From Geosiphon pyriformis uo1 (taxonomy: Eukaryota > Fungi > Glomeromycota), in NCBI GenBank assembly GCA_016748015.1, contig JAAOMT010000303.1, positions 620,001 to 684,000 of the forward strand: a DNA stretch of 64,000 bases. The letters are read 5' to 3'. The position numbers and the translations under genes were made by a program. The notes under the pieces were generated by a model. The model was not told the DNA's origin. It saw only the letters and a list, made by a program, of their open reading frames with translations, and ran no database searches. Positions 2,004 through 50,812 of this stretch are shown piece by piece. How positions within the stretch are numbered: position 1 is the first letter of the stretch; the number at the start of each line of letters is the position of its first letter.

Positions 2004-2660
2004 TTAATAAGAAGTATAAGTTTCAACCATAACATCATCTTCTCTAAAAAGATTAAGCTCCAGCAAAATCAAGCTATTTATGGTGTAATCTATTTGAAAA
2101 GTTTTATCTAACTTAAAGCTAACTAGTTTGTTGAAGTTTTTTGTGAATAGGGTATATAATACTTGAGGTGAAATAAGTTTTGTATTTAAGAGACCAAATT
2201 TTTGTATTAGAGTTTTGGCTCTTTTAGTAATAGTTAAAACTCTTGGGACATCTAACTGTATAATGCTCAAAATTTCTGCCTGTATTTCTGAAGTTGTTTT
2301 CTTCATGAGTTTCATATTCTCTATAATTTTACTAAGGCAACCATAGAGTTCTAATTGCTTTCCATATGACAAGTTTTTGTCTATAGATAAGATTTTTTAG
2401 AGTGTTTTTCCAATTGTGCTGAAAAGTGGAAGTATAGCTGCTGTTATACTTTCCAACAGATATTTATTCATTTTACTACCAATTTTTTCTCTTCTGGTAA
2501 TAGTTTTTTTTGGTTTAAAAACAGTATGTGTTCTACTGTTATCAGTTATGGTGGTTTGTTTTCCAATGGTCAGAGTAGCATTTGGATAGTTTTTGATCCA
2601 ATACTCATGGAGAGTATAGAAGGTGTTTTGAATGTTTTAATCCAGAAAATAATTGTTCAT
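2004..2660 (-). pseudogene. ORF3 of copy C (218-aa unknown protein, env position)
   Basis: ATG at 2660 (MNNYFLD...) to TAA at 2004 inside the LTR, 657 nt, with internal stops. Track ORF 2004..2372 is its 3' part. Confidence 0.8.
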
Positions 2661-2701: not shown

Positions 2702-5700
2702 TTATATTTGATTTTTGCTGATTATTTGAGTCAATATTACCACAACAGACAACCAATCAGGTCATTTATAATATTTCTTGAGCTGTGTACCATAAATAAG
2801 ATGATCATTAAAGATTATTCCAGATTGATTTTGAAGAATATAAAAACCATTGTTCAAAATTTTGTTGACTATAAAGGGTTTTTTCTACTGGCTAGAAAAT
2901 TTATTACCATAAACATTGTCTCTGTCTGAACAGTATTCCAATACCAAGTTACCAATACTTAAAGAAAGTGTTTTATAAGTTTTCTTTTTCTTAAGTTTTT
3001 TTTGGAACTGTTATATCTTTTCAAAAGCAATTATTTATGTTTCTATTAAGAAGTCAAGAATAATACCAAGTCTTCTTTGCAAAATGTTTTTGTAATTTTT
3101 TATTGTAATTTCTTCAAAGGGTATTGTCTCAATGTCAATTTCTATTGGTAGTATTGCCATGCATCCATAAAGCAGATAAAAAAGTTCATAACTTGTTATG
3201 TCATGATTCACAGTTCTATAAGCAAACAAAGCTGAAGGCAGTACTTTGTTCCATAAGTTTGTTTCTTTATTGGTTTTGGCTAAGGTTTTACATAGTGTTT
3301 TATTGAAATGTTCAACTAGATTATTTGTTTAAGAGTGGTAAGAGGAGGAAAGTTTATGATGTATTCCCATTTTTCTGCAAAGTTTTTCAACCAGTGTACT
3401 GAGAAAAGCTCTTCTTTTATCAGATAAAAGTTCTTTAGGGCAGCCATGATAACAGATGATATCTTCATAAATAAAATTGGCTATTAAGATTGCTGTTTGG
3501 TCAGAAATGGCTCTTGCTTCTACCCATTTTGTAAAATAGTCAGTAGCTGTAATAATATATCTGTTGTTATCAGGAGTTATTGTTAAAAGTCCAACATCTA
3601 TACCAATTCTGTTAAATAGTTAACCAACAGAGATTGAATGAATATCTTCTTTGCAATTGGGTTTGTCTTTTCTTTGGCAAATATCACAAGTTTTGATGTA
3701 TTTAACAATGTCTTTTCCTAAGATTGGCCAATAATAGCAAGCTAAAGTTTTCTGAATTGTCTTTGTTTTTCCAAAGTGTCTAGCTAATAGGTCAGTATGC
3801 ATGTTATATATTACAATTTCTTTTTCTTCAAATCTGATGACTCTTTGGGGGTGGTTATGATCATTTCTGTTTTTTTTATACAACTGGTTCTGATGCATCA
3901 AATAAAAATTTGATTGTTTACACAAATGTTCTCTTTGCTGTCAAGTGTATTCTGATGGGTATTGTTCTTTACCCAAAAATTCCATTAAGACAGAGTAGTT
4001 GTTCAAGTCTATTATCATGTTTGTTTGTAAAGAAGTTACTAATAATTAAGTTGGTTTGGTTTGAGAAGTTGTATTGTCACTAGATAGTAAGTCTAGAAAG
4101 AGCATTTGTATTTTGATAATTTACTTCTTTGCAGTATTGAATATCATAGTTGAATTTATCCAAGTAGAGTATTCAGCAAATTATTCATTTGTGTTCGAGC
4201 TTCTTTTTATTGTGCAGCCAAACCAAGGCTTAATGATCTGTTACCACTATAAATTTTGCACCAAGAAGATATTAATTTCAGTAACTAATAGTCCAAACTA
4301 CTGCTAAGTACTCCTGTTCAGTAATTGAATAGTTTTTTTCTGCTAGTATGAAGAATCTACTGGCATATGCTATGACATGTTTTCTGCTATTTTTATCTTT
4401 CTGTAAAAAGACAGCACCAAGTTTATAGTCAGATGTATTAGTGTGGAGAATAAAAAGTTGATCCAGATCAGGTTGCTTGAGAATTGGTTTAATAACAAGT
4501 TTTTTCTTCAGAATCTCAAAAGCTTTTTGTTGATGAGTATCCCAGTAATAATTGACATTTTTCCTGAGTAGCTGATTAAGAGGAAAGGCTATTTTAAAGA
4601 AATTTTTAATAAATTTATGGTAATAAAAGGCCAAACTAAGAAAAAAGCATAGTTCAGGAACATTTATTAGTTGTCTAATGTTCTGAACTTTTTCAACTTT
4701 AGCTGGATCAGAAAAGATTCCATTTTTTGTAATAAAATGACCAAAAAACTGGGTGGATTGATATTCAAAGAAAGATTTAATTGGGTTGATCTTAAAGCCA
4801 GCATTTCTAAACAGGTCAAAAACCTTCTGCAAATGTTCAAGATGTTCATCCCAGGTTTTTGAGTAGACCATTATGTTATTTAAGTAGACCAGAACAAAGT
4901 TTTTTTTTACTGATTCAAATACTTTGTCCATCAGGCATTGAAAGGTAAGAAGAGCATTAGTAAGACCAAAAAGCATAACTATGAATTCATAGGTACCATA
5001 CTTGGTAATGAAAGCAGTTTTTTTTCTGCTTTCTGGATCCATCTCTACTTGCCAGAATCCAGCAGTTAAAGTCAATAATTGAGAAAAAAGCAGCACTATT
5101 GAATTTATTTAACATTGCATCAATTTTGGAGAGTGAGTACATGTCTCTTATAGTAATGACATTTAGTTGGCAATAGTCAACACAGAAGTGTAGGATTCCA
5201 TCTTTCTTGAATACTACTACAACTAAGAAAGCCTATTCACTCTTGGTTTCTTGTATAAAATTAAAATCTTTCATCCAGTTTATCTCTTTCTTAATAAACT
5301 CATTATTACATGAATTAGATTAATAAGACTTTAAATAAATAAAACGAGTTTCTTTTGTGGTGATGGTGTGTTGTATCACATGAGTTTATCCAGGGGTATC
5401 ACCTTTTTTTGAAATAACTGGGCTATTCCTAGCCAACAGATTTTTAATGTCCACTTTTCTTTCTTCAGAAGAAGGTTCTTTTTGTTTTACAATTAGTAAT
5501 TGGATTTCAGGTGGTTCACTCTTAAAGAACTTCTGTACTTCTTTTAGTTCTTCTTGAGTTATCAAGCTAATTGGTTCCCAATCTTTGTAATAGATTAGGC
5601 AGGATTTGCATTTATTATTTGGTGAATACAAAGATTTATTATACCAGCATCATGTATAAAAGCTATGCCATTAATAACTGTATTTAGCTTTCTTGCCAGG

Positions 5701-6772
5701 TTTTCTGTCAAAGGTTCTTCTGAGGATATCATAGTAGGGCCAGCAGATCAGCTTGCTATTTACTATAATTTCTTCTTTGTCAGCTTTAACATTGTTCAAT
5801 GACTTGTCATTGCTGATAAAAATAGTATAGGCAAATTCAGCAGTTTTTTTTTGTTCTTCTTGATTTTTTTTATCATCACTCTCATTATTATTTAATTTAT
5901 CTGATTGTTTTTCTTTTTGGTTCTGTTTGGTTACTGGAAGAGTTGTTCAATAACAGCATTTAACCACAATGGGTTTTTCACCACATCTGATGGTTAGTTT
6001 ACAAAGTTCATAGTCAAGTAATGCTTTGGCTTTCTTAAGCCATTTATTATCAACAATGATAATATACTCTTTTGTTTCAAATACTTCCATATCTGTTTCA
6101 ATACTGATATCATTAATGCGAACAGAAACAGCTTTGGCTATACTCAGACCTTTTTTTTTGTCACCATGTACATTGGTTATAGGCCAGATAGAAGATTCAT
6201 CAATTTTTCTTCCAATGGCTTCCAAAAAGTGTTTGGCAATTACACTAACAGATAATTCATTGTCCAGGATCAAATCAATAAAGTAGCCAGCCACTTGGGC
6301 TTTGCAAATCAAAAGAGTAACATTGCTGTTATTAGCAAGTCCAGCTTGACAAAAGTGTTTGTTGGTTTTTGGTGTTTTTTTCTTTGGTATTAATGATTTG
6401 CAAAGATTTTTTCTGAACTGTAGATGGGTCATTAGTTGGCCAAATATAATATGTGCTAGGGTTTTCATGAAATCTTTAACAACAGAATAGGGGCCAGATT
6501 TTTGTACAATTTCTGGAAATTCCAACTTTAGAGGATTTCTTAAAAACTTTAGTCTTTGGTGGCTCATTGTTATCAGCAGTTGATGTGGATGCTTTTTTTG
6601 GATTTAGAACGAAATCAACCTTGGTTTTTTTCTTCTTTTTTGTTAGTTCAGAAGTATTGATTGCCAGTTTATTCATGTTATGGTCATCATCAATTAAATT
6701 AAAAGTAAAAAAGAGGTTTTCTTCTGGTTGGCTTGCACTCTCACCCTTTGGAGCTGCATCTACCAGTTTAAA
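2702..6772 (-). pseudogene. pol: pol of copy C: aspartic protease, RT, RNase H, integrase
   Basis: Protease LILDNELSVSVI (degenerate DSG). RT motifs LTAGFWQV, KTAFIT, FGLTNA, YLNN (from YLDD). RNase H VIAYASR/NYSITEQEYLA. Integrase zinc finger H..HFGKTKT..CDICQ. The PR-RT-RH-IN order is Ty3/Gypsy. Confidence 0.93.
6724..6772 (-). promoter_or_regulatory. -1 ribosomal frameshift signal (T TTA AAC plus downstream hairpin), copy C
   Basis: The heptamer is in gag frame two codons before the stop, and pol continues in the -1 frame (FKLV...). The CTGGT...ACCAG hairpin follows. Same signal at 14379-14385, 26876-26882 and 30773-30779. Confidence 0.8.
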
Positions 6773-8313
6773 GACTGATAAACAGTGACTTTAACTAAAA
6801 GATCCTCTCCAAAGAAATTGATGTTGGCATGATTGGGTCTTTGGTTGGAGACATTGTTGTTGATGGTTCTGTTGTTTTGATTGTTATTGTTTCTGGGAGC
6901 TGGAGAAGGCAGGGGAGAATTGTTGCAATTTCTGGAGAAATTTCCAGTTAATTCATAGCAATAATATACAGGTGGGCCATAATTTTGTTGTCTTTGATAT
7001 AGAGATTGCTGAGGCTGATTAAAACAGAATTCAAATCTGGGTCTTTAAGTTTGTTAATTCTCTCTAACTGCTTGGGCCAAAGATTCTAATAGCCAGACAA
7101 GATTTGCTGTAAGCCTATTTATTAATTGTTCATTTGGATCTGGAGTTTGAGCAACAAAAAAGATAGCAGCCATTTGTGGAGCAGGTGCCATAATAAGAGC
7201 AGAAGCAAAAACTGGAAAAATAGATCTCAGATGCATCCTTTGGTTATCTTCTATTCTCTGGACAAGTTCAATAGCCATATCTATTATGGAATTATCTTTC
7301 AAGACCAGGAGAAGCCAAAAAGCATATAATAGATTAGTTTTCAGTCTTTTTGTAAAGGAATGTATTTTCTGCTCTTTTGTCTAATTTCTTCCAGAGTCTA
7401 CCTATTTAATAAGTTTTCTTATTGCTTTGGCATATTCTGTTACAACTTTACCAGAGCCTTGAGTTCTTCTTTCTAATTCCATATGCCATTTTGAGATTAA
7501 GATGGAAGTTCTAAATTTTATTTCAAACCAGGTAGTAAAAGAAGTGTTATCTTTTTCAGCATTTACCAGTGTTCATCTAATGATTTTTTGCTGAGCATTG
7601 GTATTGGTTTCTTGTGAAAACCAAGTAGCAAAAGAGTCTTGGAGATAGCCACCAATGATTTGAAACTTGTATTCATTATCATATTGGTTTGCTGTGACAG
7701 CTCTCTTAAAGTCATCCAACCATTCAATTGAATTTTGAGCATTACCTCTGAATAATGGTAATGGGGTGTTGTTTTTTTGCCCTAAAGCAGTCTGTATATC
7801 TTAGAGGGCAATTAGAATGTTTTGTTGTAGAAGGTCTTAAGCCATTGGTTCAGGTGTAACTGTTTGTGTAAAGTGTTCTGATTTACTTGAAAAGAGATCA
7901 AAAATGGGAGCAGTTTGATAGCTTTCTTCTTCTGTTTTAAGAAAAGTTTCAATTGATTGATGAGCAGTAAAACAAGTATGGATTTGATGATTAAGATATT
8001 CGAAATCAGGGGGCTGTTATTCAAAGATTGTGGAATATAAAAGCTGATTAACGCTGTTGTTTCTTTCTTCAAAGTTGTCTTCAAAATAAGCTTGATCAAA
8101 ATAATAAGTTGTATAGACTGTGTAAGTTTCAGCTGAATGCTTGTTCAGAAACCAGTTCTAAAAGTCTTGAAATTGTCTACTGGATTGTTCTTCAATGGGA
8201 AAGCAAATCAAGCAAGAGAGCAAAAAATTGAGTTCAATAAAGTTTGGATTGTTTTTGTTATGTGCTTCAAAGTGTTCTTCTGATTGTTATGGCAGATATG
8301 AATAATTACCCAT
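6760..8313 (-). pseudogene. gag: gag of copy C
   Basis: ATG shortly after the PBS. Capsid-like region (PIEWLDDF.RA..ANQYD) and a degenerate CX2CX4HX4C knuckle near 6925-6970. Ends at the TTTAAAC-TGG-TAG junction. Confidence 0.85.
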
Positions 8314-8340
8314 ATAATAGGAAACAAAATAGATTTTGAC

Positions 8341-8359
8341 AACCTTACAAAAAGCACCA
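8341..8359 (-). promoter_or_regulatory. Primer binding site of copy C (probably elongator tRNA-Met)
   Basis: Plus strand reads AACCTTACAAAAAGCACCA, a tRNA 3' end ending CCA, 6 nt from the LTR. Homologues at 15954-15972, 24683-24701 and 29186-29204 give the consensus AACCTCACAGGAAGCACCA. Confidence 0.8.
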
Positions 8360-8896
8360 CTTTTATGTTATAAGTTGGAGTAACAAGCTAACAGATAGCA
8401 AGGGAAAACAAAATTGTAGGGTAATGGAAATAATCAAAGAGATTTTAATTTCAAGAAGTGAATTAAATAAGTAAATATTCAATGTGCAAGATCAGTCTCA
8501 TAAAATATCTCAGTTGCTATACTTTTCAAAGAGTAACTGAAAATCTGAAGGTAGAGGAATAGTCTATATTGTCAACAAATGATCACATCTGGTATAATTC
8601 TATGCTTCATGTCAGCACTCTTAGAATTCAATATTAGATATCAGATGTATTCTTTAGTCACATTTTTATTCAATAATCTTCAAATGCTACAATTATACAA
8701 GTCAGAAAAAGGGTAGATAAATGCCAACAAGTAATCTTTTATTCTAAAATGTTCAAATACTTGAAGGTAAGAAAAAAAAAATTAGCAATAAGAGAAGGAT
8801 TAAGATGAAGTTGTTATTTTATTTATTTTATTTCCTTGATTTCTACATGTTTTTCTATAGCTAAGAAATTCATTGCTTATATAGCTGTCAAAAGTA

Positions 8897-9063
8897 GTCA
8901 ATTATTAAGTCAATGACTAGGTCAATGATCAGATCAATGATCAGGTCAATGACTAGATTAATGATCAGATCAATGATTAAGTCAATGATCAGGTTATTGA
9001 TCAGGTCAATGATCAGATCAATGATTAGGTCAATGGTCAGGTTATTGATCAGATCAATAATCA
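8897..9063. repeat. 12-bp minisatellite (GTCAATGATCAG)n in the LTR U3, about 14 units
   Basis: Tandem units visible directly. Shorter or longer arrays occur in the other family A LTRs that include this region (e.g. 1900-1945, 18185-18340, 28552-28650). Confidence 0.9.
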
Positions 9064-9625
9064 TTTTCTAAAAATAGAGTGGCTAATTTATATAACATTA
9101 ATGGCTAATACATATAATAATTAATAAGAAATATAAGTTTTAATCATAACAGTACTTTTAAAAAGGTAATCGGAGAATCTGAAGGTAGAAGGAGAGTCTG
9201 TACTGTCAACAAATGATTACACACTGGTATAATTCTATGCCTCACATTAGTGCTTTTAGAATTTAATATCAGATATCAGATGTGTTTTTCAGTCATGTTT
9301 TATTCAATAATCTTCAAATACTACAATTACATATTTCAAGAAAAGGATAGGTAAATACCAACAAGTAATTTTTTATCTTTAAAATATTCAGATACTTAAA
9401 GGTAGGAAAAAAAAATTTTAGCAATAAGAAAAAAATTGAAATGAAGTTGTTATTTTATTTATTTTATTTTTTTTGATTCTTACATACTTTTCTACAGCTA
9501 AGAGATTTATTGCTTATATAGCTATCAAAAGTGGTTAATGATCAAGTCAATGGTCAGGTCATTAATCACTTTCTAAAAATAGAGTGGCTAATTTATATAA
9601 CATCAGTGGCTAATACATATGATAA

Positions 9626-10282
9626 TTAATAAGAAGTATAAGTTTCAACTATAACATTATCCTCTCCAAAGAGATTGAGTTCTAGTGAAATCAAGTTATT
9701 CATAATATAATCTATTTGAAGAGTTTTATCTAACTCAAAGCTAACTAGTTTGTTGAAGTTTTTTGTGGATAGGGTATATAATACTTGAAGTGAAATGAGT
9801 TTTGTATTCAAGAGACCAAATCTTTGTATTAGAGTTTTGGCTCTTCTAGCAATAGTTAAAACTCTTGGGACATCTAACCATATAATGCCCAAAATTTCTG
9901 CCTATATCTTTGAAGTTGTTTTTTTCATGAGTTTTATATTCTTTATGATTTCTCCAAGACAATTATAGAGTTCTAATTGCCTTCCATATGACAAATTTTT
10001 GTCTGTGGGCAAGATTTCTTGGATTGTTTTTCCAATTGTGCTAGAAGATAAAAGTATAAATACTATTATACTTTCTAACAAAAATTTATCCATTTTACTA
10101 CCAATTTTTTTTCTTCTGGTAATAGTTTTCTTTGGTTTAATAACAGTATGTGTTCTACTGTTATCTGTTATAGTGGTTTGTTTTCCAATAGTCAAAGTAG
10201 CATTTGGATAGTTTTTGATCCAATACTCATGAAGAGTATAGAAGATGTTTTAAATGTTTTGATCCAGAAAATAATTGTTCAT
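9626..10282 (-). pseudogene. ORF3 of copy B
   Basis: 657 nt. Track ORFs 9626..9892 and 9902..10195 are in-frame pieces separated by a stop. Confidence 0.8.
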
Positions 10283-15926: not shown

Positions 15927-16673
15927 ACAATAGAAAACAAAGTGGATTTTGACAACCTTACAGGAAGCACCACTTTTATGTTATGGGTTGAAATAACAAG
16001 CTAACAAATAGCAAGGGAAAACAGGATTGTAGAGTGATAGAAATAATCAAAGAAATTTCAACTTTAAAGAGCAAATTGAATGAGTAAGGATTCAATATAC
16101 AAGATTAGTCTCATAAAATATCTCAGTCACTGTACTTTTAAAAAGATAACTGGAGAATCTGAAAATAGAGAGATAGTCTGTACTGTCAACAAATGATCAC
16201 ACACTGGTATAATTTTATGCCTTATGTTGGTGCTCTTAGAATTCAATATCAGATATTAGATGTGCTCTTCAGTTATGTTTTATTCAATAATCTTCAAATA
16301 CTACAATTACACATTTCAGAAAAAAGGATAGGTAAATGCCAACAAGTAATCTTTTATTTTTAAGATGTTCAGATACTTGAAAGTAGAAAAAGAGAATTTT
16401 AGTAATAAGAGAAAGATTAAGATAAAGTTGTTATTTTATTTCTTTTATTTTTTTTGATTTTTACATACTTTTTTATAGCTAAGAGATTCATTGCTTAAAT
16501 AGCTATCAAAAGTGGTCAATGATTAGGTTAATGACTAAGTCAATAATCAGGTCAATGATCAGATCAACAGTCAAGTCATTGATCACTTTCTAAAAATAAA
16601 GTGGCTAATTTATATGACATCAATGGCTAATACATGTGATAATTAATAAGAAGTATAAGTTTCAACCATAACA

Positions 16674-17662
16674 ATACCAAGTTTTCTTTGCAAAATGTTT
16701 TTATAATTCTCTATTGTAATTTTTTCAAAGAGTATTGTTTCAATGTTAGTTTTTATTGATAGTGTTGCCATATATTCATAGAGTAGATAAAAAGATTTAT
16801 AACTTGTTATGTTATGATTTATAGTTCTATAAACAAACAAAGCTGAAGACAATACTTTGTCCCATAAGTTTGTTTCTTTATTGGTTTTGGCTAAGATTTT
16901 ACATAATGTTTTATTGAAATATTCTACTAGGCTATTTGTTTAAAAATAATAAGGGAAAGAAAGTTTATGACATATTTCCATTTTTCTGCAAAGTTCTTCA
17001 ACCAGTATACTGAAAAAAGCTCTTTCTCTATCAGATAAAAGTTCTTTAGAACAGTCATAATGGCAGATGATATCTTTATAAATGAAATTGGCTATTAAGA
17101 CTGCTGTTTGGTCTTGCTTCTACCCACTTTGTAAAATAGTTAATAGCTGTAATAATGTATCTATTACTATTAAGAGTTATTGTTAAAGATTCAATAACAT
17201 TTATGCCAATTTTGTCAAATGGTTGACCAACAGAAATTGAATAGATATTTTCTTTGCAATTAGGTTTTTTTCTTCTTTAGCAGATGTCACAGGTTTTAAT
17301 ATACTTAGCAATATTTTTTTCAATATAGATCAATAATAGTGAGCTAAGGTTTTCTGTAATGTTTTTGTTTTTTCAAAGTGTTTGGCTAATGGATTAGTAC
17401 ATTACAATTTTTTTTTCAAATCTGATGACTCTTTGAAAGCAGTCAGAATTTTTCCTGTTTCTTTTATATAACTGGTTTTGGCAAATCAAATAGAAATTTG
17501 ATTGTTTGCATAAATGTTTTCTTTGCTGTCAAGTGTATTCTGATGGGTATTGTTCTTTACCTAAAAATTCTATTAAAGCAGAGTAGTTGTTCAAGTCCAA
17601 TATCATATTTGTTTTATAAAAGAGTTACTAAGAATTAAGTTGGTTTGGTTAAGAAATTGTAC
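16674..17662 (-). mobile_element. Continuation of copy A: integrase core and zinc finger, cut by element D at GTAC 17659-17662
   Basis: Colinear with ~3063-4075 of copy C. Confidence 0.9.
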
Positions 17663-18399: not shown

Positions 18400-19055
18400 T
18401 TAATAAGAAGTATAAGTTTTAATCATAACATTATTCTCTCCAAAGAGATTGAGCTCTGACAAAATCAAGCTATTTATGATGTAATCTATTTGAAAAGTTT
18501 TATCTAACTCAAAGTTAACTAGTTTGTTGAAGTCTTTTGTAAATAAGGTATATAATACTTAAGGTGAAATGAGTTTTGTATCCAAAAGACCAAATCTTTG
18601 TATTAGAGTTTTGGTTCTTTTAGCAATAATTAAAATTCTTGAGACATCTAATCATATAATACCCAAAATTTCTGCCTGTATCTCTAAAGTTGTTTTTTTT
18701 AGAGTTTCATATTTTCTATAATTTCACCAAGACAACCATAGAGTTCTAATTGTCTTCCATATGACAAGTTTTTGTCTATAGGTAAGATTTTTTGGATTGT
18801 TTTTCCAATTGTGCTAGAAAGTAAAAGTATAGCTGCTATTATACTTTCTAACAGAAATTTATTCATTTTGCTACCAATTTTTTCTCTTCTGGTAATAGTT
18901 TTCTTTGGTCTAATAACAGTATGTGTTCTACTGTTATCAATTATGGTGGTTTGTTTTCTAATAGTCAAAATAGCATTTGGATAGTTTTTGATTCAATACT
19001 CATGGAGAGTATAAAAGACATTTTGAATGTTTTGATCCAAAAAATAATTGTTCAT
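18400..19055 (-). pseudogene. ORF3 of copy D
   Basis: Homologous to 2004-2660. Track ORF 18699..18968 is part of it. Confidence 0.78.
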
Positions 19056-34828: not shown

Positions 34829-35484
34829 ATAAACAATTATTTTCTGGATCAAAACATTTAAAATACCTTTTATACTCTCCATAAGTATTGGATTAAAAAC
34901 TATCTAAATGCTACTTTGACCATTAGAAAACAAACTACAATAACTAATAACAATGGAACACATACTGTTATTAGACCAAAAAAACCATTACTAAAAGAGA
35001 AAAAATTGGTAGCAAAATAGATAAATATCTGTTAGAAAGTATAATAGCAGCTATACTCTCATTTTTTAGCACAATTGGAAAAACAATCCAAGAAATCTTG
35101 CCTATAGACAAAAATTTGTCATATGGAAAACAATTAGAACTTTATGGTTGTCTTAGAAAAATTATAAAGAATATAAAACTTATAAAAAAAACTCCTTCAG
35201 AGATACAAACAAAAATTTTGGACATTATATAATTAGATGTCTCAAGAGTTTTAACTATTGCTAAAAAAGCCAAAACTCTAATACAAAGATTTGGTTTTTT
35301 GAATACAAAACTTATTTTGTCTCAAGTATTATATATCTTATTCACAAAAAATTTTAATAAACTAGTTAGCTTTAAGTTAGATAAAACTCTTCAAATAGAT
35401 TACACCATGAATAGCTTGATTTTACCAGAGCTTAATTTCTTTGAAGAAGATAATATTACAGTTAAAACTTATACTTCTTATTAA
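34829..35484 (+). pseudogene. ORF3 of copy F
   Basis: Start codon mutated to ATA. The C-terminus is track ORF 35299..35484, ending inside the LTR. Confidence 0.78.
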
Positions 35485-36144: not shown

Positions 36145-38906
36145 GTATAATTTCTTAAGCAAACCAACTTAATTATTAATAACTTTTTCACAAACAAACA
36201 CAATAATGAACTTGGGCAATTATTTTGCTTTAATGTAATTTTTGGGTAAAGAACAGTACCCACCAAACTACACTTGACAACAAAGAGAACATTTACACAA
36301 ACAATATAATTTTTATTTGATTTACTAGAACCAACTTTACAAAAGAAATAGAAAAAATTCTGACTGCTCTCAAAGAGTTATTAGATTTAAAAAAAAAATT
36401 TGTGATCTATAACATATACACTAATTTATTAACTGAACACTTTGGAAAAACAAAAACAATTCAGAAAACTTTAGCTTACTATTATTAGCCTAACTTGGAA
36501 AAAAACATTACTAAATACATTAAAATCTGTAATATCTGTCAAATAAGAAACAAATCCAATCAAAAAAAAATATTCATCCAATTTTTGTTGATCAACCATT
36601 TGATAGAATTAGCATTGATGTTGTTGGATCTTTAACAATAACTCCTAATGATAATAGATATATTATTACAGCTACTGACTATCTTATAAAGTGGGTAGAA
36701 ACAAGAGCCACTTCAAACCAAACAGCAGTCTTAATAGTTAATTTCATTTATGAAGATATTATTTGTCATTATGACTGCTTTAAAGAACTTTTATTTAATA
36801 GAGAAAGAGCTTTTTTCAGTATACTAGTTGAAAAACTTTGTAGAAAAATGGGAATATATCATAAACTTTCCTCTCTTTACCATTCTTAAACAAATAGCTT
36901 AGTAGAATATTTTAATAGAATACTATGTGAAACCTTAGCCAAAACCAGTAAAGAAACAAACTTATAAAACAAAATACTGCCTTTAGCTTTGTTTGTTTAT
37001 AGAACTGTGAATCATGACATAACAAGTTATAAACCTTTTTATCTACTTTATAAACACATAACAAAATTACCAATAGAAACTAATATTGAAACAATATCTT
37101 TTAAAAAAATCACAATAAGAAATTATAAAAACATTTTACAAAAAAGACTTGGTACTATTTTTGATTCATTGGTAGAAGCACAAATAATTGTCTTTAAAAA
37201 AATAAAACAGTTCCAAAAAAAGCTTAAAAAAAAAACTTATAAAACACTTTTCTTAAGTATTAGTGACTTAGTATTGGAATATCATTCAGACAAAAACAAT
37301 ATCTATGGTAATAAATTCTCTAACCAATAAAAAGGACCCTTTTTAGTCAACAAAGTTTTGAACAATGGTTCTTATATTTTACAAGATTAATATAGAACAA
37401 TTTTTAATAATTGTTCTGTTTATAGTATGTAATTTAAGAAATATTATAAAAAATCTGATTGGTTGTCTGTTGTAATAATACTAACCCAAATGATTAGCAA
37501 AAATTAAGTATAAATAAATGCATCATTTCTAAAACAGAGAATCAAAACATTCAAAATATTTTTTATACTCTCCATAAGTATTGAATCAAAAATTATTCAA
37601 ATGCTACTCTGACTATTGAAAAACAGACCACCATAATTGATAACAGTAGAATACATACTGTTATTAGACCAAAGAAAACCACTACCAGAAGAGAAAAAAT
37701 TGGTAACAAAATGGATAAATATCTGCTGAAAAACATAATAATAGCAATACTTTTACCTTCTATCACAATTAGAAAAACAAATAAAAAAATCTTACTCATA
37801 GACAAAAACTTGTCATATAAAAGACAACTAGAATTCTATGGTTGTTTTGGTAAAATCATAGAGAATATAAAGCTTATAAAAAAAACAACTTTAGAAATAC
37901 AGATAAAAATTTTGGGTATTATATAATTAAATGTTCTAAGAGTTTTGACTATTGCTAAAAGAGCCAAAACTTTTATACAAAAATTTGGTTTCTTGAATAT
38001 AAAACTTATTTTATCTCAAATATTATATACTTTATTCACAAAAAATTTCAATAAACTAGTTAGTTTTGAGTTAAACAAAACTCTTTAATTAGATTATTCT
38101 ATGAATAACTTGATTTCACTAGAGCTCAATCTTTTTGAAAAAGATGATATTATGATTGAAACTCATATTTTTTATTAGTTATTACATGTATTAGTCATTA
38201 ATGTCATATAATTAACTACTCTATTTTTAGATAATAATTATTGACTTGATTAATGACCTAACTGTTGACCTAATCATTAAGCTAATTATTAACTTGATCA
38301 ATAATCTGATCATTAATCTGATTATTGATTTGATTATTGATCTAGTCATTGATCTGGTCATTAACTACTTTCAATAGCTATATAAACAATAAGTCTCTTA
38401 GCTATAAAAAAACATAATCAAAGTAATAAAATAAAACTCACTATTAATTACTTCTTGTTATATTACTTATTTTCTTTTTTTATCTTTAAGTATCTGAACA
38501 TTTTGGAATAAAAGATTACTTGTTGGTAATCACATACCTTATCTTTTCTCTTTCTTGATTTGTATTGTTAGAATTAGTCTGAGAAGCAATTGCTTGCTCT
38601 TGTAATTTATTAAATAAAGAAACAATTAAAAAACACAACAATATTTGTTATTAATTCTAAAAATTGCCAAGTTGAAACATAAAATAATAGCAGTGATATT
38701 ATCTTGTTAACAATCATGAATTATTTTTCTATCTTCAAATTTCTAAAAAAGATTTGCAACTGTGATTTTTATGAGACTGATCACATATATTGAATCCTTA
38801 CTTATTCAATTTACTCTTATATTGTAATTATTTTTTAATAATTTCTATTATTTTACAATCCTATTCTTCTTTGCTATTTGTTAACTTGTTGCTCCAACCT
38901 GTAACA
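36145..38906 (+). mobile_element. Family A fragment A': integrase, ORF3 and variant-A2 3' LTR (38148-38906); inverted counterpart of copy A
   Basis: Starts at the same nucleotide at which A is cut by D. Track ORFs 36989..37330 (integrase) and 37711..37926 (ORF3). Ends TGTAACA. Confidence 0.88.
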
Positions 38907-40896: not shown

Positions 40897-43724
40897 ATGA
40901 AACAATTGAGCTTATCTGCTAGTGGTTCTGGTTCGGTTTCAGCTGGGTTGGGGTCCTGGTCTGGTGAAAAAAAAAAGGCACATGTTAAGAGTATCTACTC
41001 TTATAGTTTTTTATTTAAAAAGCCAAAAAAGCCTAAGACTTCTGGTGTTGTAGTGGATTTGTCAGCTAGATCTTTGTCTGCCAATACATTGTAAGTTACT
41101 GGTGTTGAGCATATTAAATTCTGGGGCAGTGAAATGGACAGTGAAAAAAATAGTGTTAGTGAAGTGTTAAACATGAAAAACATAAAGAACACAGTTACTG
41201 AAGAAATGAGCTACATTGATTTCAATACTTCTGAGATGGACAACATGATAGACGACACAACTCTAAGAAAAACATAAACAAGGACTTATGTGCTAGGACA
41301 GCTGCCAAAAATGCCTTCTTTCAATGCTGTGAGTAATGATGATACCAAATTGGTGCTTCTAACATCTAAGTTTTCTGGATCTCATAAGCTGTCATTGGCT
41401 GAATTACATGTTAGGGAGATTAGGAGTTTTAATTCTGCTAAGTCATTCACACTAAATATAGAGCTGTTAGCAATACCTGGAAAATCTAATGGTGATAAAT
41501 TAATTGCAATCAAAAAAATTTTCTATTAAATTGATGATTTTGGAGAGGCTTTCACTTTCTCAAAATTTTCAAGAATCATTAGATCATTGTTTACATCTGA
41601 AATAAATTTGAAAAAGGCTAGAGAAATAGCAATCAGTAAAAAAATTCTTGTTAATGATGATTTTAGGAAAGTAAACAGCCGATCAGATTGGAAAGTGATT
41701 GTTAAAGAGATCTCAGTTGATCTTCTCAAATTGGCTGTTGAGTCAGTTTTTTCCAAATTTGATAAGGTTGTATTAATCAAGATATAGCTGATTGGCCTAT
41801 GGCAAAAAGCTTTAGTAGAGTTTGATTTATCTGAAATAGCTAGTTTAGTTGCTTCCAATTGATCTGTTCTTATGAAAAAAGATTCTGTGTGTGTGGTTTT
41901 GGCTATTGATGATAAGCAATCATAGATTTCAAGGAACTAATATCAGGCATTGTTATACACATTACTAGTTAGAATTACTACTTATGATCTTTCTGACTTG
42001 TTGAATTCTTATAGTAGAAAAACATGCTTTATTGGTTGCAATCTGAGTTTATATGTTCATAACAGATGTGTAATGGTTTGTTTTGAGGATGAGACATCCA
42101 GAGTGACTGCTGTTGATTTTATTCCAGTTTTTAAGAGTGTGAATTTGTGTTGAGCTGGTCTATCTTTGGCTAGTTGTGCTTAGTGCAAACAATCTGGTCA
42201 TGTTTCCATTAATTGTGTTGTGGGTGAAAATCATGGTGGTCACAGTAAATGGGTGGTTAATTCTCAGAACTGGGTTTGCTTGGCCAATATTTATAAGAAA
42301 AAGCAGGCACTCATCATTTGTCCAGTCTCTTTTGGTGGTAAAACTTGGGCCCAAGTTGCCAGTGGTTTCTCTTCTTTTGTGGTTTCTTCATTTCCTTTTG
42401 GTACTGGTTTGTTTTTTGGTGCTAAGTTCTTTCTTGGTATTATGTCTTCTTTATATGTCTCTGCTTCTTTTGGTGTCTCTGGTTTATATGATTTTTTGGC
42501 ATCTTTGAAACACTTTTTGGAACTTTTAGCCAATCAAGTTTCTAGTGTTATGAAAAAGTTGAATTTTGTGAAACTGGTGCCTCTGTCATTTGTCTCTTAT
42601 GTGCTCTTTTCAGCTGTTCTTATATCTTTGGCTTTGAGTTTGAATTCAAACATAGTATTGAATAGTGTATTAGTGCTTTCTGTTCTCTCTTTTTCTGCTG
42701 TTGAAGATAATGTTTCTGGTTTTAGTTTGAGTAGTTCCAAGGTTCTAACCACCAAGGTGGGTGGTGTTACTCATAAAAATATAGAGAATATATATTAGCA
42801 TAGTTATTAGCCAATCAGAAGTAGACATAGTAAATGTGGAATTTCAGAATTCTTCTCAGGAATTGCAGAATTCCAGGAATTACAGGATTCTCATGAGGAA
42901 TTGCAGGATTCCAGAATTCCAAGACTCCCCTCAAAGGAATTGCAGGATTTCAGGAATTCTAAGATTTCTGTTGTAAAGAATGAAGGAATTAAGGAATCTC
43001 AATTATGTATATATAGCAGTAGTATTAAAAGCTGAAAGAAACAAATCTTCCAGTTTAGATTTCATCTAGACAACCTTCCAAACACAATAAATAACTATTT
43101 GGTATCTCAAATCTAATTCCACTATCAACACTTTATGTTGATAGTAATTGATACTTAAACACACTGGAACAATAGCTCTTGATCACAGCTATTGATGGAA
43201 TACTAATTTGCAAAACTGCCTTGGCTTATTCATTATTTTCTTTTATTTCTTTTTTTTATTTTTATTTTTTATTTTATTGTTGTACACTAATTGGTTGAAT
43301 AAAATACTAGATTACTGACATCAAGGATTGCCTGGTAAAAAACTCCTGCAAGAGAGTAGGACATGTACAGAAGATATGGAATATTTACCAGAGAATTGCC
43401 AGTCATCATGCCGAGAGAAGAATTGACAGAATTGTGATTCTGAAAAGCTACAGATAAAACAACTATTGAATTTCTGTCCATTATACAAAGAACTCAAACC
43501 AAAACCTTCAAATACAAAACCTTCAAATTATTAACATCAATGCAAATAACTTTTAGCACCAAGTTACGGGTTTGTTATTTGATTCAACATCCCAAATAAT
43601 CACTCATAACAGTGGCTTAGAATCAAAGATGGTGTCTTTGGAGACTTTAATTAGTTCAGTGCTGGTTAGATTGGATTGTTTGTGCTCTGAGTCGGGTGTT
43701 CCATTATTTTTTTCATCCCAATGA
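40897..43724 (+). pseudogene. LINE-a ORF1 (nucleic-acid binding, degenerate CCHC knuckle ~42175-42215), interrupted by a solo LTR
   Basis: CA*CKQSGHVSINC knuckle. ...VLTTKVGG|LESKMVSL... reads across the insertion. Homologous to the ORF1 at 51007-62897. Confidence 0.8.
42765..43611 (+). mobile_element. Solo LTR of a third family (847 bp)
   Basis: TGTTA...TAACA termini and a perfect TSD GTGG (42761-42764, 43612-43615). The order CCAAT ~42811, GGAATT repeats, TATATATA ~43008, AATAAA ~43086 suggests plus orientation. Confidence 0.9.
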
Positions 43725-46700
43725 ACATTTTAGTTTGGAAAGTTGTTACTTGCAACATTAGAAAAATGAACAATCCTGTGAAACAGGATGATATTATTTG
43801 TTGGTATAAGAACATGGGCAATTTAATTTCTATTTTTATAAAATCAAAACTAAAAGGAAAGGTTCATCCATGAATTGCTAATAGGTTTGATAATGTTCAG
43901 GTCTTTACTTTTGGTTTGAAATCTGGTTATCTGGATGCTAGTGTTGTTGTCATCATAAATTCTTCTTTAGTAAGGCATATGAGCAAGATTTCTGAAGTGC
44001 CTGGTTGGCTCCTTTCCATTAAATTACTTTTTAAGAATAAAATTTCTGTGTCAATTTTAGGGCTTTACATTGGTGCTTTTTCAGTGGTTTGGTTCTTTTA
44101 GATTGGTGAAATCAACTTTTTTATTGCTAAGGCTGTGAATAAATTTTTTTTCATCATCCTCAGTGGTGATTTCAATGAAGATGGCTCTTATAAGTGTGTG
44201 AGTTTTAAAAAGTGTGTTGATTTGGAACTAATTAATTCTTTGGTCAGTAGCCTGGCTGTTAAAGAATCTACTTGGGCAAACTTTAGGGGTATCATGAAGA
44301 TGATTGATTTTGTGTTTGTTTCTCCAAATCTGGTAAATGTAATAGTGTGTTGAAAAATTTTGGGGATCAGTGAGTATTTTGACATAAATCACAAAACTGT
44401 TTTCATGTCTGTGGGTCTGGATGGCCTTTTAAATATACAATTGACCTTTCTTTGTAAACAAGCAAATAGAGATTGATAGAAGTTCAATTTCAAGAATGCT
44501 GGTAAGGATAAATGGAATGATTTTAAGAATGCCACATTGGTCAATGTAGTGATGTTCTAAAAGAAGTTCACTACAGCTTTGAAGTTCTCAGATTTGAATA
44601 CAATATGAGATGTTATTCATAAAATTATGATTTTTTTGGCTAATGAAATATTCAGAAAGAAATGGTTTAAGAACCTTGGTTATGTCTTTACCAAGGAGTT
44701 TTTAAGATTTATAGATTAGAACTTTTAGTTTTAAAAATTGTTGGGGCTTTTTATAGGGATGATGTTGATAGTTTTGTTTTTCTTATAAAGTGTTGGTGCT
44801 CTTTGGACAATGCTAAGGCTTTAGTTGTTCAAGATTTAGTGGACTTTGATACAACTTTTGATCATGTTTGTTCTGCTCTCTTTGGTGCTAGGAAATCTTA
44901 TTGTGCTTTGAAGTTTGCAGAATCTTTGAGGGCTAAAAAAGTAAACATTAAGTCTGCCATAGATAAAAGGATAGAAAGCTTCAAAATAAATAAAAGTCAT
45001 ACTATTAAAAGTGTATTGAAGTGCCCATTTCACAAAGTAGTACTTGACCATTTGGTTGTTGATGATGAGCTGGTTTTGGAGCCTGGTTTGGTTAAGTCTA
45101 AGATAAATATGACTATGAAAAGTTGGACTCAGAAGCATCAGACAGTTTCTGATGTTTCTAGTGAATGGTGTTATCAGTATTAGCCTTTGGGATATGTTTT
45201 TAATAGAGCTTTTTCTGGTGTAATGTGTTTGATTGATTTTGATGAATTTTTTGGGGTGGTTTTTGGTCTGCTTGATGGCAAAACTGCTGGTCTCTTGGGT
45301 ATTTTGAATGAGCTTTGGAAGCATTGTGATAAATCTATTCTGAAAATGCTCTTAGTGCTTCTGAATTCTTGTTTGTCTGGTGAATCTGTGTTCAGTTCTT
45401 GGAAAGAGACTTGAGTCTCAATAATTCTCAAGCAATATGAGTGAAAGAGTGTTCTAATGAATACTTGCCCTATTGTATTAATTGAAACAACTTGCAAAAT
45501 TCTTTTTAAGATTCTCTCTGATAGGATTTCTTTAGCTTGCAATACTTTTAGTGTACTTTATAGAGACAATTTTTCGGTTTTAAAGGGTACAACAACTTAG
45601 TCTTCCATTTTTGTAATTGGGTCAATCATTAAAGATGCTTTGGAGAAAGACTGGGAGCTCTGACTAGTTTTGCAGGACATGCAAAAAGTGTATAATTTGG
45701 TTGGCTGGAAACATCTTAAGAAGAATTTGGTCAGAATTAAAATTTGTAATAGATTTATTCAATTTTTTAGTAATATTTATAGAAATCATATTAACTAAGT
45801 TATAACAGATTTTGGTTTAACAGACAATTATTGTGTGTATGATAGTTTAGACCAAAGAGAGGTTTTTTCTTTCTTTCTGTGGCATATATTTTATGATCCT
45901 CTGTTGTGTGAAGTCAAGTGTTAGGAAAGTGTGTATGAATACAAAATCAATTCTTATTTTATTTTCAAAAGTGGTTGTGCTGAATTTCAGACTGGAATCT
46001 TTTCTTTTTTTGCTGCTGGCGCTTTCATTGATAATACAATTTGGGTTGGTAGTAGTCAAAATACTACTCAACACATTTTTAATGTTGCTAGTGAATTTTT
46101 CTGAATCAATGACATTTCTATTAATAACGAAAAAACAGTGGCCATTCCCATCAATAGCAGAATTGGCAATCTTTCTCTTTTTATTAGTGGTTTGCCCATC
46201 TCTATTGCCAAAAAAGAGGAATCTCATCAGTATCTGAGTATTTTTTTTTTGACTGAGGGTCTTTCAAAGCCTAATTTGGCCAAGACATATTCGGATGTTT
46301 GTTTTTTTACCAATCTGGTCCTGAGGAAAGCTGTATCAAATAAGCAGTTCCTATATTTGGTGTTTGTGGTTTTCCATCCTATTGTCAACTACAGAACACA
46401 ATTTAGCTTTGTTCCTTTTGGTGTGTGCAACAAGTGGGATGCTCTGATTTGTAAAGGCTTGAAGCTTAAGTCTGGTTTGTCTCTTGATTTTTCTGGTAAT
46501 ACAATTCACTATCCTTTCTTTTATGGTCTGAAATTCTTTTTGCAAATTCAATCTAAAAGTAAGATTGTTTCACTTGTTAGCTTTGTAAACTCTGGTGGAA
46601 TTTTGGATTACTTGTTTTCTTACTGGTTTTATGACTTGCAAGTTTGGTGTTGGCATTCTGTTCATCCATTGGTTTTTTTTGTTTGTACTTATGTCAGTAC

Positions 46701-48407
46701 TTCTAATAATTTTTTGGCAGGCATGGTTTGTATTTTTTTTGATTGTAATTTGTCTCTGAATGATCTTGTAGCCAGTTTTTTTTGGTTTTATGGTGAAGTG
46801 CCTATGTTTGCTGTTCTGGTGAATCAAAGTTTATCAAATTTCCCTTTTTTTTTTAGTGATACAGTATTGCCTTTGTGGATCAACTTTGTGATCATTATGG
46901 TGCTGTTTTTAATTAGTACACTTTTAAGTGGTAGAAGAAATTAGACCCCCATGGCCCTATTTCAAAATGGTTCAAGCTGTTTGCTGCATTTCTCAACAAT
47001 GTAACTTTTTCTCCAACTTATTCTTTGGCTTTGTGTGGTGTTGGTTCTTTGAACATTTTTAGATTTAATAACTTTGTGTCTGTTTGTAATCATTTTTTAT
47101 GAGTTGATACTGGTATTTTATCTGTGTACACGAATGGATCCTTGAAGAACTTGGGCACAGTTAGCTATAAGGCTGGTGCTGCTGCTTTTTTTAAGGACAT
47201 TGGTTTGGATTTGGGTGTTGGTGTATTGGGTTTGATGTCTTCTACTCTGGTAGAATTGCAGGCTATTGTATTGGCTCTGAAGTGTGTTCTCTTATCTAGT
47301 TCTATTCGCTTGTTTTTAGATAGTCAATCTGCTTTGAATACTTGTAAGTTAAAACTGGGTTTAGTGTGTCCTAACTTTTATAATCAGTGTTGGATTGAGC
47401 ATCAATATATTTTTAATGTTATTTGCAGTAAGAATTTGAGAGTTAGTTGGCACAAGGTGAAAGATCACTCTGGTGTTTTGGGGAATGAGTGCACCAATAT
47501 AATTGCTGGTGCTGCTTTTTTTTCAGGTTGGTATCTTCCTCCTCACTTGAATGAACATTTTATTGTGGCTGATGGTGGTGTAGTTTCTGGCAATTCTAAA
47601 TACTTTGTTCATAATATCTATTATTCCATTTGTTATGCATATTAGAAGATTGGTTTTGGATCTAAGTTTTCGAAGAGTGGTTTGCTTTCTGAAATTGACT
47701 GGATCCACTTTTCATTGGTGTGGCATCCTGATTTGCACATGGCTACTGGTTTTACCAGCCAACTCTTAGCTAATGCATGCACTTATTTTATAAAAGCTTT
47801 GTATCATTATCTGTCTGTTGCCATTCAGAAGCATCTTTATAGTAGACTTTATTCCAGTGTTTTGTGTTTATATTGTGATGATGTGGAAGTATCAGATCAT
47901 GTGTTTTTTTGTAGAATTGATAAGTTTGCTCACCATCAGTTATTGAACTCTTATGTAGATTCTTAGTGGGTGCTTTTTGGTTTCACTTATTTTTTTTCAT
48001 GTGTGTTATAACTGTTGTCATCCTGTACTTTTGATTCTTCTATGTCTACAGCTCTTTTCAAAAATTTTGTTTTTTGTGATTGGTTTTATGAAGCTGTTTC
48101 CGTTTTCCATGATCCCAAGTTAGCTGGTTTGGAGATTGTTAAATTTGTGTACTCTCTTAGTATGGCTTTTAGAAATGATATCTGGTTAGTTCATATTAAG
48201 CACCACACCTATATGAAAAAGAATAGTTTAATTTCCCTTAATAGTTTGGCTCTCATCTTGGTTTCTGGTTTGGCTTTGGAGTTTTCTGCTGGTGTGGTGA
48301 AGCTGCTTAGTGTTACTGATGTTTTTGGTATATATTTTAGCTTTCACAAATTTTGTTCATTTTTTTCAGGTATTAGTAGTTCAGTGTTAGTTCATATAGC
48401 TGCATAG
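43721..48407 (+). pseudogene. LINE-a ORF2: AP endonuclease, reverse transcriptase, RNase H, C-terminal zinc knuckle
   Basis: APE: VTCNIR, GDFNE, IDFVFVS. RT: PIVLIE, QDMQKVYN, AFIDNTIW (from FVDD). RNase H: YTNGS, ELQAI, FLDSQSA, WHKVKDHSGVLGNE. Knuckle: CLYCDDVEVSDHVFFC. Confidence 0.92.
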
Positions 48408-48547
48408 TGTTGTTTTGATCAGCCTAAGTGGCTAGTTATGTGTAAAAAGTACATGATTCACACCTAGTTTAGATTATTTCTTTAATGTATAACACTAGGC
48501 TGTGTTTGGATCTCATTCATTAAAATATAAAAAAAAAATACTGTATA

Positions 48548-50812
48548 CTTTTTGTCTTCTTAATTTTATGACTACAACTAAAACAAAGAGTTAAAAAGCT
48601 ATATCTAATATTTTTTCTAAGATACCTAATAAAATTTCAACCAAAAAAGCTTTTTTTGTTGTAAAAGCAATTAAACAAAATGTTTTAAAAGCCTTTTTTT
48701 TACTCAGTAATTGTGAAAAGCTGTTTTTAATAGCTACTAAAGCAACTTCTTTATCTTTGGCTGGTTTTTTATTAATCAAAATTCCTTCAAAGAGACACAC
48801 TTGAGTTAATCTTAGTATTGCCTTTATCTTTTAAAAAGCCCAAAAATTTTTAATAACAGACCAGTCAACAAGCTGGTTTTTATTTTCATAGCTTCTATAC
48901 CAGATGCTGCTAACACTTCTTTAAAAAAAAATAGTCAAAAAAACCAAAAGTTCAAAAAAATAGGAGCAGTCACTTGTCTCTACTATTGTTACACCAAACT
49001 CATTTGTGGTTCTAACTGAGATTTCTACTGTTTCATCCAGCATATTATCTAAGATAGGCCAAGATCAACCACTGGCTGTATTGTCAAATATGGTGTTTTC
49101 TGGCAGATCCTTGCCAGTTCTAAAAGCAAAGCAACTATTTTCTATTGGGTTATCTATTTTTAAAAACTAAGCTGACCAAATAAAAACTAAATTATTTTCT
49201 TCTTTGGTTTCTGGTGCTATTGCTAATGGTGTTTGGAAAACTATTGCTAATTATTAAAGATTTGCTGGATAAGTGGTTTTTACTCTGGTGTCTAATACTA
49301 CTTTCAAGATTAAATTGGTTCATATTAAGGCTGTTTTTCAATCTGTGCATAGTTTTCTGGATGTAAAATCAATGTTAAAGGACAATATGAAGCTTTTCTG
49401 TATGGAGTCTGCTTTTTATGTGTTTTTGAAAGCTGTATTTTTGGTTAAGCTTACAAGTTCTATTTATTTGGCCACTTTCAAAATTGTAAAATCTTTGGTG
49501 GTTTTTGAGTCTGGTTCTTTTTCTGCTGTTGTTGTGCTATATAATATGCTTTTGGGTATATCTGTTGCTAATATTAAGACAATTTTTAATGTGTTTGGTA
49601 GTATTACTTATATTGTGTTAAAACCTACTGGTGTTTGGCAATATGTGGTTGTTTATTTTAAAAAGTTAAACTTTGTTGTGTCTGCTTTTAGTTATTGGTC
49701 AGTTTTGGTGAACAAAAATAGTGTTAGAATCCTTTCTTTGGTAAATCAGAATAAAAATATTCTGTTTCATGATAAGTTTAAGGCCAAGCTGATCAATTTT
49801 TTTTCTGGTTGTACTGTTTTTGAAATCAGTAATATGGTTTTTCAGATTGGTGGTCAAACATGCTTTATTCTTTGCTCTCCTAATTCTGGTCATTGTTCTC
49901 AGTTTGTTTTGGTTACATTTGGATCTTAGGTTGATTTGGATACTGTTATTATTAAGACTAATACACTAAGAAAGTGTTATATCTGGTAAAAAATACTTGA
50001 TTGTTGGTGCTTTTTTAGGTGTCAAGAAATAGACCACTTGGGTGTAAATTGTAAAATGTTTCTGTTTCTTTTTTTCAAGGCTTTCAAAATGTTTGTTTTA
50101 TGCTTTGTAGGCACAAAGTTTTATGTTAAGGTGTCTGCCCCTCTGGGCTCTTCTGAATTCCTTTCATTAATAATTTTTACTTTTTTTGGGGGGGTTGAAA
50201 ATGATCCTTTAATTTTGCCTTAGCTTATGTCTTTGTAATTTAATTTGGCCAAGTTGTTAATGTTAGTTGAATCTATTGTTAAGTTTGTTGGTGAATTGGT
50301 AACTGCTTTTGAACAATTTATTAAAGATGATTTTGTGTTTAACAGCAATCTTAAAAACAAGATTAATAAGCTTATAGTATATTTGAGTGCTTTTAGCAAA
50401 TCTGTTGATAAGTTAAAAAGAAAGGTGGTAGCATTAAAAACTGAGTGTGACATGGAAAATATTGATTTGTCTAGTAATTTTGGTGTTCTAGTTGGAATAA
50501 ATAATAAGGTGTTTGGTAAGTTAATAACACTCTGAAAATTTGAATCTCTTGAAATTAGGTCCAGTTTTATGAAAACAGTTAAGTGATTTGTTGAATTAGT
50601 TTCTAGTAGTTTTACTTTGTTTGATATAATTTAAAATATGTTTATTTTGGACAAGTTTTCTTGTAAGTTGTCAATGTAATATAGTTTGAACTGGTTCAAG
50701 TAGCTGGTTGTATATAGAAAGTACATGAACTTCACTTAATTTAAAATACTTAGTTTGTTTTAAAGTACTAAGTAGTAATTGGGTCATACTTGTTAAACTT
50801 AATAAAAAAAAA
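48548..50812 (+). mobile_element. ORF1-only polyadenylated element (non-autonomous LINE derivative); degenerate ORF ~48568-50679
   Basis: ORF1-like segments (IKTIFNVFGSIT..WQYVVVYF..GGQTCFI; knuckle ..FRCQEIDHLGVNC) parallel those of the flanking LINE ORF1s. No APE or RT. The 3' UTR motif is shared with LINE-a. Poly(A) at ~50804-50812. Confidence 0.72.

Follow-up and report, generated by a model that had tools for sequence, protein, structure and literature searches.

A decayed copy of a selected accessory gene with a candidate internal promoter in Ty3/gypsy elements of Geosiphon pyriformis

Ty3/gypsy elements of plants and fungi are known to carry additional open reading frames (ORFs) of unknown function after pol and ahead of the 3' LTR (PMC7264820; PMC2864245; accessible sections), and the former source, in the same sections, reports that non-enveloped retrotransposons commonly have extra ORFs where env would lie, almost all of them without function. 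The third ORF considered here (hereafter designated ORF3) resembles the group termed aORF-3S, as far as these sections describe it, in being a conserved ORF in sense orientation that is placed between integrase and 3' LTR and is present in all copies; it was found in six of the six copies with a 3' end in our window and in two further loci (L003 and L004), with a dN/dS of 0.20. On the same description, it differs from the env-like members of aORF-3S in having no membrane domain, and from the known aORFs in that its protein family has no Pfam or PDB match, that it overlaps the polypurine tract (PPT) and the start of the LTR, and that it is preceded by a positioned TATA box in a lineage with a separate integrase ORF. 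The foamy-virus protein Tas, made from an internal promoter, is described in the accessible text as an activator of the LTR (PMC8670036, PMC13220597, PMC7828637), and ORF3 is similar to Tas/Bet as a 3' accessory gene, with a candidate internal promoter, that adjoins and enters the 3' LTR (PMC7828637, PMC4929722; accessible text). Unlike the foamy-virus genes, however, it belongs to an element without an env gene, no sequence similarity to Tas/Bet was found, and no response element common to U3 and the candidate internal promoter was detected. CERV of the C. elegans element Cer1, according to the accessible part of its report, is made from a spliced RNA and exports genomic RNA (PMC10309623); ORF3 can be likened to it, by description alone, as another novel and putatively soluble accessory protein of a Ty3/gypsy element, but differs in having a candidate internal promoter in place of the spliced RNA. 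Errantivirus Env and MDG1 sORF2 are also extra ORFs in Ty3/gypsy elements, Env in the same position (bioRxiv 10.1101/2025.03.14.642691, the accessible part of which also supplied the sORF2 fusogen criteria applied below), whereas ORF3 lacks a signal peptide and a membrane domain as well as the myristoylation Gly and any conserved furin site.

The window, that is, the whole stretch of 64,000 nucleotides of G. pyriformis DNA analyzed here, is a nest of decayed LTR elements with about 29% GC, in which CpG is strongly depleted (observed/expected, 0.04); in the genome as a whole, LTR elements make up 41%, according to the accessible text of PMC11952901. Element A lies on the minus strand, as do all of its features given below, and extends from the 5' LTR (8366–9151, read from 9151 to 8366), which has a 12-nt tandem array of about 14 copies in U3, to the 3' LTR (1369–2034, read from 2034 to 1369), with a 4-bp target duplication; it is inserted within the 3' LTR of copy B. 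The two LTRs are identical at 587 of 662 aligned bases. Between them follow a primer-binding site (PBS; 8343–8359) near-identical to that of family G, a decayed gag-protease-RT-RNase H region (4080–8340, the 5' limit being approximate) that ends in a stop at 4082–4080, an integrase with H2C2 and rve domains in a separate frame (2702–4018), and the PPT (2035–2046), which is located within ORF3. The Pfam domains appear in the order RVT_1, RT_RNaseH, Integrase_H2C2, and rve, that is, the Ty3/gypsy order, and the succession of RT, RNase H, and integrase between LTRs, with PBS and PPT present, agrees with the layout of Ty3/gypsy elements (Metaviridae). Several features of the nest itself were also recorded. 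Family A elements have inserted into one another at GTAC-like sites with 4-bp duplications (9152–9155, 16667–16676, 17656–17660, and 36146–36150), and copies C and D occupy the same site, namely, the RNase H-integrase spacer of another family A copy. A large inverted arrangement, C plus E versus D plus F, covers 16675–37154, and the similarity of the 5' LTR of C to the 3' LTR of D suggests an inversion between opposed copies. The stretch 41500–52300 on the plus strand holds a separate decayed element, probably a LINE, in which RNase H was matched (E = 2e-5) and some stretches resemble endonuclease and RT.

As had been proposed in the original prediction, a 657-nt frame follows pol at 2660–2004 in element A, with its ATG 41 nt past the integrase stop; it continues across the PPT and terminates 31 nt within the 3' LTR (starting at 2034), the first 31 nt of which code for the ORF3 tail. 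In the 41-nt spacer (2661–2701), a CAG may serve as initiator or splice acceptor. The further statement that the ORF is present in every family A copy that has kept its 3' end was borne out in that six copies, four of them of 656–657 nt, carry it, but none is an open frame. Copy A (2004–2660, minus strand; 218 codons) is decayed, with stops at codons 8 and 88; copy B (9626–10282, minus; 657 nt) has two internal stops; and copies C (18400–19055, minus) and D (34829–35484, plus), of 656 nt each, are frameshifted by a 1-nt deletion, D having also ATA in place of ATG. Copy A', belonging to element E (174–805, minus), has several indels and likewise ATA for ATG, and copy F (37522–38177, plus) has lost the start region. 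Nevertheless, the column majority of the six copies gave only one internal stop in the ORF3 frame as compared with 12–21 in the other five frames, the same contrast of one open and five stop-rich frames as found for integrase and RT. Transversions within the window gave no signal of selection (22 non-synonymous and 6 synonymous, with about 4 synonymous expected), being too few, and 68 of the 74 differences between copies A and B are transitions.

Evidence for selection came from relatives of ORF3. The best 120 of 128 homologues are all annotated G. pyriformis hypothetical proteins with 60–86% identity, and 20 among these 120 are intact proteins of exactly 218 aa. Many gene models of this species fuse parts of ORF3 with stretches of integrase, Gag, or LINEs (P0012, P0021, P0077, P0123, P0124, and P0138), and these fusions look like annotation artefacts on nested dead elements. 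A search of the ORF3 profile against 1.84 billion representatives yielded 27 matches, of which four were distant, and a fifth distant one was found later; these relatives come from metagenomic records and show 20–34% identity, the full-length ones having 28–33% identity to P0007 and the same start Met. The two complete distant relatives also share the C-terminal tail, for which the PPT and the LTR start provide the codons in family A. Since scans of viral contigs and metagenomes at the DNA level with ORF3 as bait found no locus, integrase was used as the bait instead (80 of 106 confirmed loci kept), and the proposed location of homologues between integrase and PPT was hence checked from the integrase side only. 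Among 2692 ORFs of all loci, the 197-aa ORFs directly 3' of integrase in L004 and L003 were the top matches to the ORF3 profile (E = 6e-8 and 2e-6, respectively; next best, 0.02), and their hhalign probability with family A ORF3 was 92%. In the integrase tree, the nearest four loci, L002–L005, and family A form one clade (SH-aLRT 98 by a quick method; L048 was dropped for its length, and family G, with 43% coverage, took no stable place). An intact homologue therefore occupies the same place in both close integrase relatives with enough downstream DNA, L003 and L004, the sequences of L002 and L005 ending before this position. Between L003 and L004, the pN/pS of ORF3 was 0.41 (95% interval, 0.33–0.51), and its dN/dS of 0.20 compares with 0.076 for integrase, indicating that ORF3 evolves faster; the L004 protein belongs to a cluster of 40 members. 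From the homologues in place, the integrase clade, and the dN/dS value, we conclude that ORF3 is a real accessory gene under purifying selection, co-inherited with integrase in this clade.

Outside the clade, sense ORFs of 109–149 codons follow integrase in L007, L013, L024, and L025, and those of L013, L024, and L025 are also under selection (pN/pS, 0.42–0.54). Kinship of the L013 group of post-integrase ORFs to family A ORF3 was not significant, with L007 being borderline (9 of 500 shuffles), and no ORF matching the ORF3 profile was found in the plant-like and other distant loci listed. L001 proved to be a plant-type element and unrelated.

The faster evolution of ORF3 would suit an anti-silencing factor acting against DNA methylation or RNAi, for which we take VANC to be the model. 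The CpG depletion of the window (0.04 of expected) and the dominance of transitions (68 of 74 between copies A and B) indicate that methylation pressure is high, and a factor of this kind would profit from being expressed independently of the LTR. Against this, the protein has no similarity to any chromatin or nuclease domain, and the heavy decay of the window copies means that any protection was not lasting; we regard this role as unlikely.

The pol region of these elements is split. Integrase is not the C-terminal part of a single Pol polyprotein, as it is in the Ty3/gypsy definition: a stop after RNase H and a separate integrase ATG were found in all four family A junctions, in family G, and in L003, L004, L005, L008, L009, L011, L016, L026, and L034, the separate frames being intact in L003, L004, and L005. 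The integrase ATG lies 4–150 nt after the RNase H stop, or overlaps it, across the lineage. In element A, integrase has its own start near 4018–4012, about 60 nt past the RNase H stop (junction, 4080–4018 on the minus strand), and further junctions were located in the 55500 region of the window (minus strand), at 3112–3158 in L003, and at 4796–4848 in L004. In 10 other loci (L006, L007, L012, L013, L014, L018, L022, L023, L025, and L035), the integrase ATG is preceded by sequence other than the end of RNase H, and two further loci in this survey were unclear. In L004, a single frame of 1457 codons extends from Gag to RNase H; with the separate integrase and ORF3, the element therefore consists of three cistrons. 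Other features were noted at these junctions. A purine run identical to the 3' PPT core follows the RNase H stop (L003, 3112–3125; L004, 4796–4810; and L005) and is possibly a central polypurine tract. In one sub-lineage (L011, L016, and L026), a small ORF of about 45–55 codons fills the RNase H-integrase spacer. In L006, L007, L014, and L018, a conserved motif is located about 45 nt before the integrase ATG, with an upstream ORF that is not RNase H; it may represent a splice acceptor, a structured RNA, or a non-autonomous layout.

The split pol bears on what the ORF3 product might do. An integrase encoded by a separate ORF, as in A, G, and the nine loci with RNase H directly upstream, needs a packaging route, and the same gene and promoter could serve a post-transcriptional role, namely RNA export or packaging in the manner of Rev or CERV, or the bringing of integrase into the particle. 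A DNA motif 33–35 nt before the LTR is kept, whatever the reading frame, in A, G, L003, and L004, and CERV, as described in the accessible text of PMC10309623, provides a precedent. In Atlas comparisons, P0160 matched a closterovirus coat protein (0.92; 148 shared features) and a translation repressor (0.91; 123), both below same-family level. These matches are leads only, however, Pfam scans show neither RNA-binding family, and nothing connects the pre-LTR motif to the ORF3 protein, so that this role appears possible but less than probable.

With regard to expression, TATAWAW starts at −46 from the ORF3 ATG in all five family A copies that retain the start region; in element A, this TATA-like box, a candidate internal promoter, is at 2700–2706, 46 nt before the ATG, overlapping the integrase stop at 2704–2702. 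It is also present at −46/−48 in family G (54080–54088, minus strand), −38 in L003, −46 in L004, and −43 in L025. Thus, five of nine families have the box 38–48 nt before the ATG, as compared with a background of 0.8–4.4% per 16-nt interval, this interval having been chosen after the data were seen. The other four do not fit: the box is at −70 in L013 (across a long A run), at −72 in L024, and at −87 in L048, and is absent from L006/L007, the start codons of the last three being uncertain. The gene had been predicted to need its own expression route, through either a subgenomic or spliced RNA or recoding, and the positioned TATA box lends support to the subgenomic RNA; judged from these sequences, an internal promoter is the simplest reading and a likely one.

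Recoding, in contrast, is excluded in L003 and L004, where the spacers between integrase stop and ATG (52 and 56 nt; frame offsets, +1 and +2) each contain an in-frame stop. The family A frame is indeed open upstream as predicted, for 32 codons in four of the five copies and in −1 relative to integrase, but this stretch has no in-phase slippery heptamer: the heptamer CCCAAAA is located after the integrase stop, and another, in two of five copies, is out of phase by inspection. Splicing was also considered, in which ORF3 would be translated from a 5'-LTR RNA joined to an acceptor in the spacer, as for insect gypsy env, the TATA-like word being incidental. In A, L003, L004, and L025, a YAG or AAG precedes the ATG by 11–20 nt, with a pyrimidine run in L004 and L025, and env-like aORFs (PMC7264820) and CERV (PMC10309623) use spliced RNAs according to the accessible parts of these sources. 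By inspection, however, no fungal branch-point word was found at a usable distance, the G spacer has no AG in its last 47 nt, and the TATA box is kept at a constant distance in five families, so that splicing appears improbable as compared with the internal promoter.

The original prediction that the protein is not an Env was supported: it has no signal peptide, membrane anchor, conserved furin site, or known family. Retroviral and errantiviral Env proteins are characterized by a signal peptide, a C-terminal TM anchor, and a furin site, R-x-K/R-R. In 11 proteins examined here, the best 10-residue hydropathy within the first 32 residues was −0.7 to 1.1 on a simple scale, giving no indication of a signal peptide, and R-x-K/R-R was present in only one. 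The highest 19-residue hydropathy was 0.79–0.85 in P0132, P0135, and the L003 and L004 proteins, so that no C-terminal TM anchor was detected in them; it reached 1.1–1.8 in 25 mutated Geosiphon copies, with the peak in mid-protein in the four examined. The single membrane domain and MGxxxS/T start of sORF2/FAST-like fusogens were also absent, as was an N-terminal Gly. A role as an Env or a small fusogen in spread between cells, or production as a frameshift fusion with integrase, might still be invoked from the location after integrase, the 32 open upstream codons in four of five family A copies, and the hydropathy above 1.6 in 4 of 25 Geosiphon copies. This is largely refuted, and hardly credible now, given the missing signal peptide, furin site, and N-terminal Gly, the hydropathy of 0.8 in intact relatives, and, for the fusion, the in-frame stops of L003 and L004 and the position of CCCAAAA behind the integrase stop.

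Searches of Pfam, PHROGs, and PDB gave no credible family match to the ORF3 proteins; a match to the Cmr2 PDB sequence (E = 0.015) was taken as chance. In the freely accessible literature searched, no description of this protein family or promoter was found. Structure prediction, as suggested originally, yielded two AlphaFold models of A-type proteins, both of unreliable quality (pLDDT, 42.8 and 42.2); their agreement is limited to a helix at the N terminus, a short region of strands, and a series of helices. Foldseek with these models of pLDDT about 42 against PDB and viral structures gave no E value below 0.001, and a wide fold search (VIA) reached at best Z = 6.5 with generic three-helix bundles, which was not taken as evidence. 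Atlas feature matches (best, 0.86 for P0132 and 0.93 for P0160) are leads only. The isoelectric points range from 5.7 to 9.7, and basic residues of the conserved core are predicted to lie on a helix (I-A-x-R-x-x-x-L); nucleic-acid binding found no support in family, structure, or motif matches. The product is predicted to be soluble and mostly helical.

Family G carries a third ORF in the window (53310–54040, minus strand), decayed and frameshifted, and this ORF is also real in that two Geosiphon proteins match it with 46% identity, one of them, P0122 (244 aa), apparently whole. Because the frame (54040–53310) is shifted near 53560–53600, its C-terminal part needs another frame. Like that of family A, it had been described as ending in the LTR; the window ORF does so, stopping 10 nt within the 3' LTR (52344–53319, minus strand), but P0122 stops just before the PPT. 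The CAAC|ATG start context proposed as common to A and G is indeed present in both. On the other hand, the short motifs proposed as a link fail, both intact G-type proteins reading SDQ rather than LDQ, and neither FLDQ nor TIGK is kept in distant A-type relatives. Homology of the A and G proteins was not borne out by hhalign (probability, 0.1–0.2%), by shuffling (z at most 1.7), by a glocal profile (z, −0.6), or by a leave-one-out comparison in which 346 of 500 shuffles scored as high, and, with seven tests negative, a single protein family was rejected as unsupported. Since only two G proteins, one full and the other partial, entered these tests, their power was low. A three-block pattern can be aligned by eye, and by MAFFT of hand-cut segments, across A, L003/L004, L007, L013/L024/L025, and G, in which significance was reached only for A versus L003/L004; with only two G sequences and a pattern that can be aligned, A and G may be remotely homologous. 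The lineage-wide accessory gene of the original prediction therefore stands in part: ORF3 is selected and extends past a single family, to L003, L004, and metagenomic proteins, but its homology with the G gene is unsupported.

What A and G have in common is a DNA architecture, consisting of the PBS, a 4-bp target duplication, CAAC|ATG, the TATA box at −46, and the pre-LTR motif, and their RT regions are about 43% identical. The pre-LTR motif, located 33–35 nt before the LTR, is identical at 16 of 22 nt between A (2049–2070, minus strand, ahead of the PPT) and G but is read in different frames, and seems likely to be a cis element for reverse transcription or packaging. Its positions are 2049–2070 and 53336–53357 (both minus) in the window, 5033 in L003, and 6730 in L004. 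Family G also shows a weak dUTPase match (E = 1.7e-4) before RT at about 57350–57600 (minus strand), and its integrase has an SH3-like tail.

Taken together, we favor, though tentatively, the reading that ORF3 of element A is a decayed copy of a selected accessory gene with an internal TATA promoter of its own and a helical product that regulates LTR transcription. In this Ty3/gypsy lineage of Geosiphon and related hosts, with the gene between integrase and the 3' LTR, the TATA promoter at the integrase end would direct a short mRNA ending at the 3' LTR, and the soluble, mostly helical product would act on nucleic acid of the element itself, regulation of LTR transcription being its most plausible task. 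We infer that the TATA box is a working promoter. The regulator role is hinted at by the analogy with foamy-virus Tas, by the basic residues on the conserved helix, and by the U3 tandem arrays, which were found in all eight LTR sequences tested, with near-palindromic 20-mers in L003 and L004; words common to U3 and the region before the internal TATA box did not exceed background. A broader version, in which a three-cistron lineage would resemble a complex retrovirus by having a third gene with its own promoter and a product that switches on the LTR in the manner of Tas, and in which the third genes of A, G, and the other sub-lineages would form one fast-evolving helical superfamily, seems doubtful.

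Collectively, it may be concluded that ORF3 is a solid gene, the expression of which through an internal promoter is probable from its sequence context, and over a hundred "hypothetical proteins" of G. pyriformis are copies or fragments of it. ORF3 is directly testable, as intact elements (L003 and L004) are known and both a promoter candidate at a fixed distance and arrays that are candidate targets have been located. If true, a fungal retrotransposon with a self-promoted regulator would parallel the complex retroviruses.
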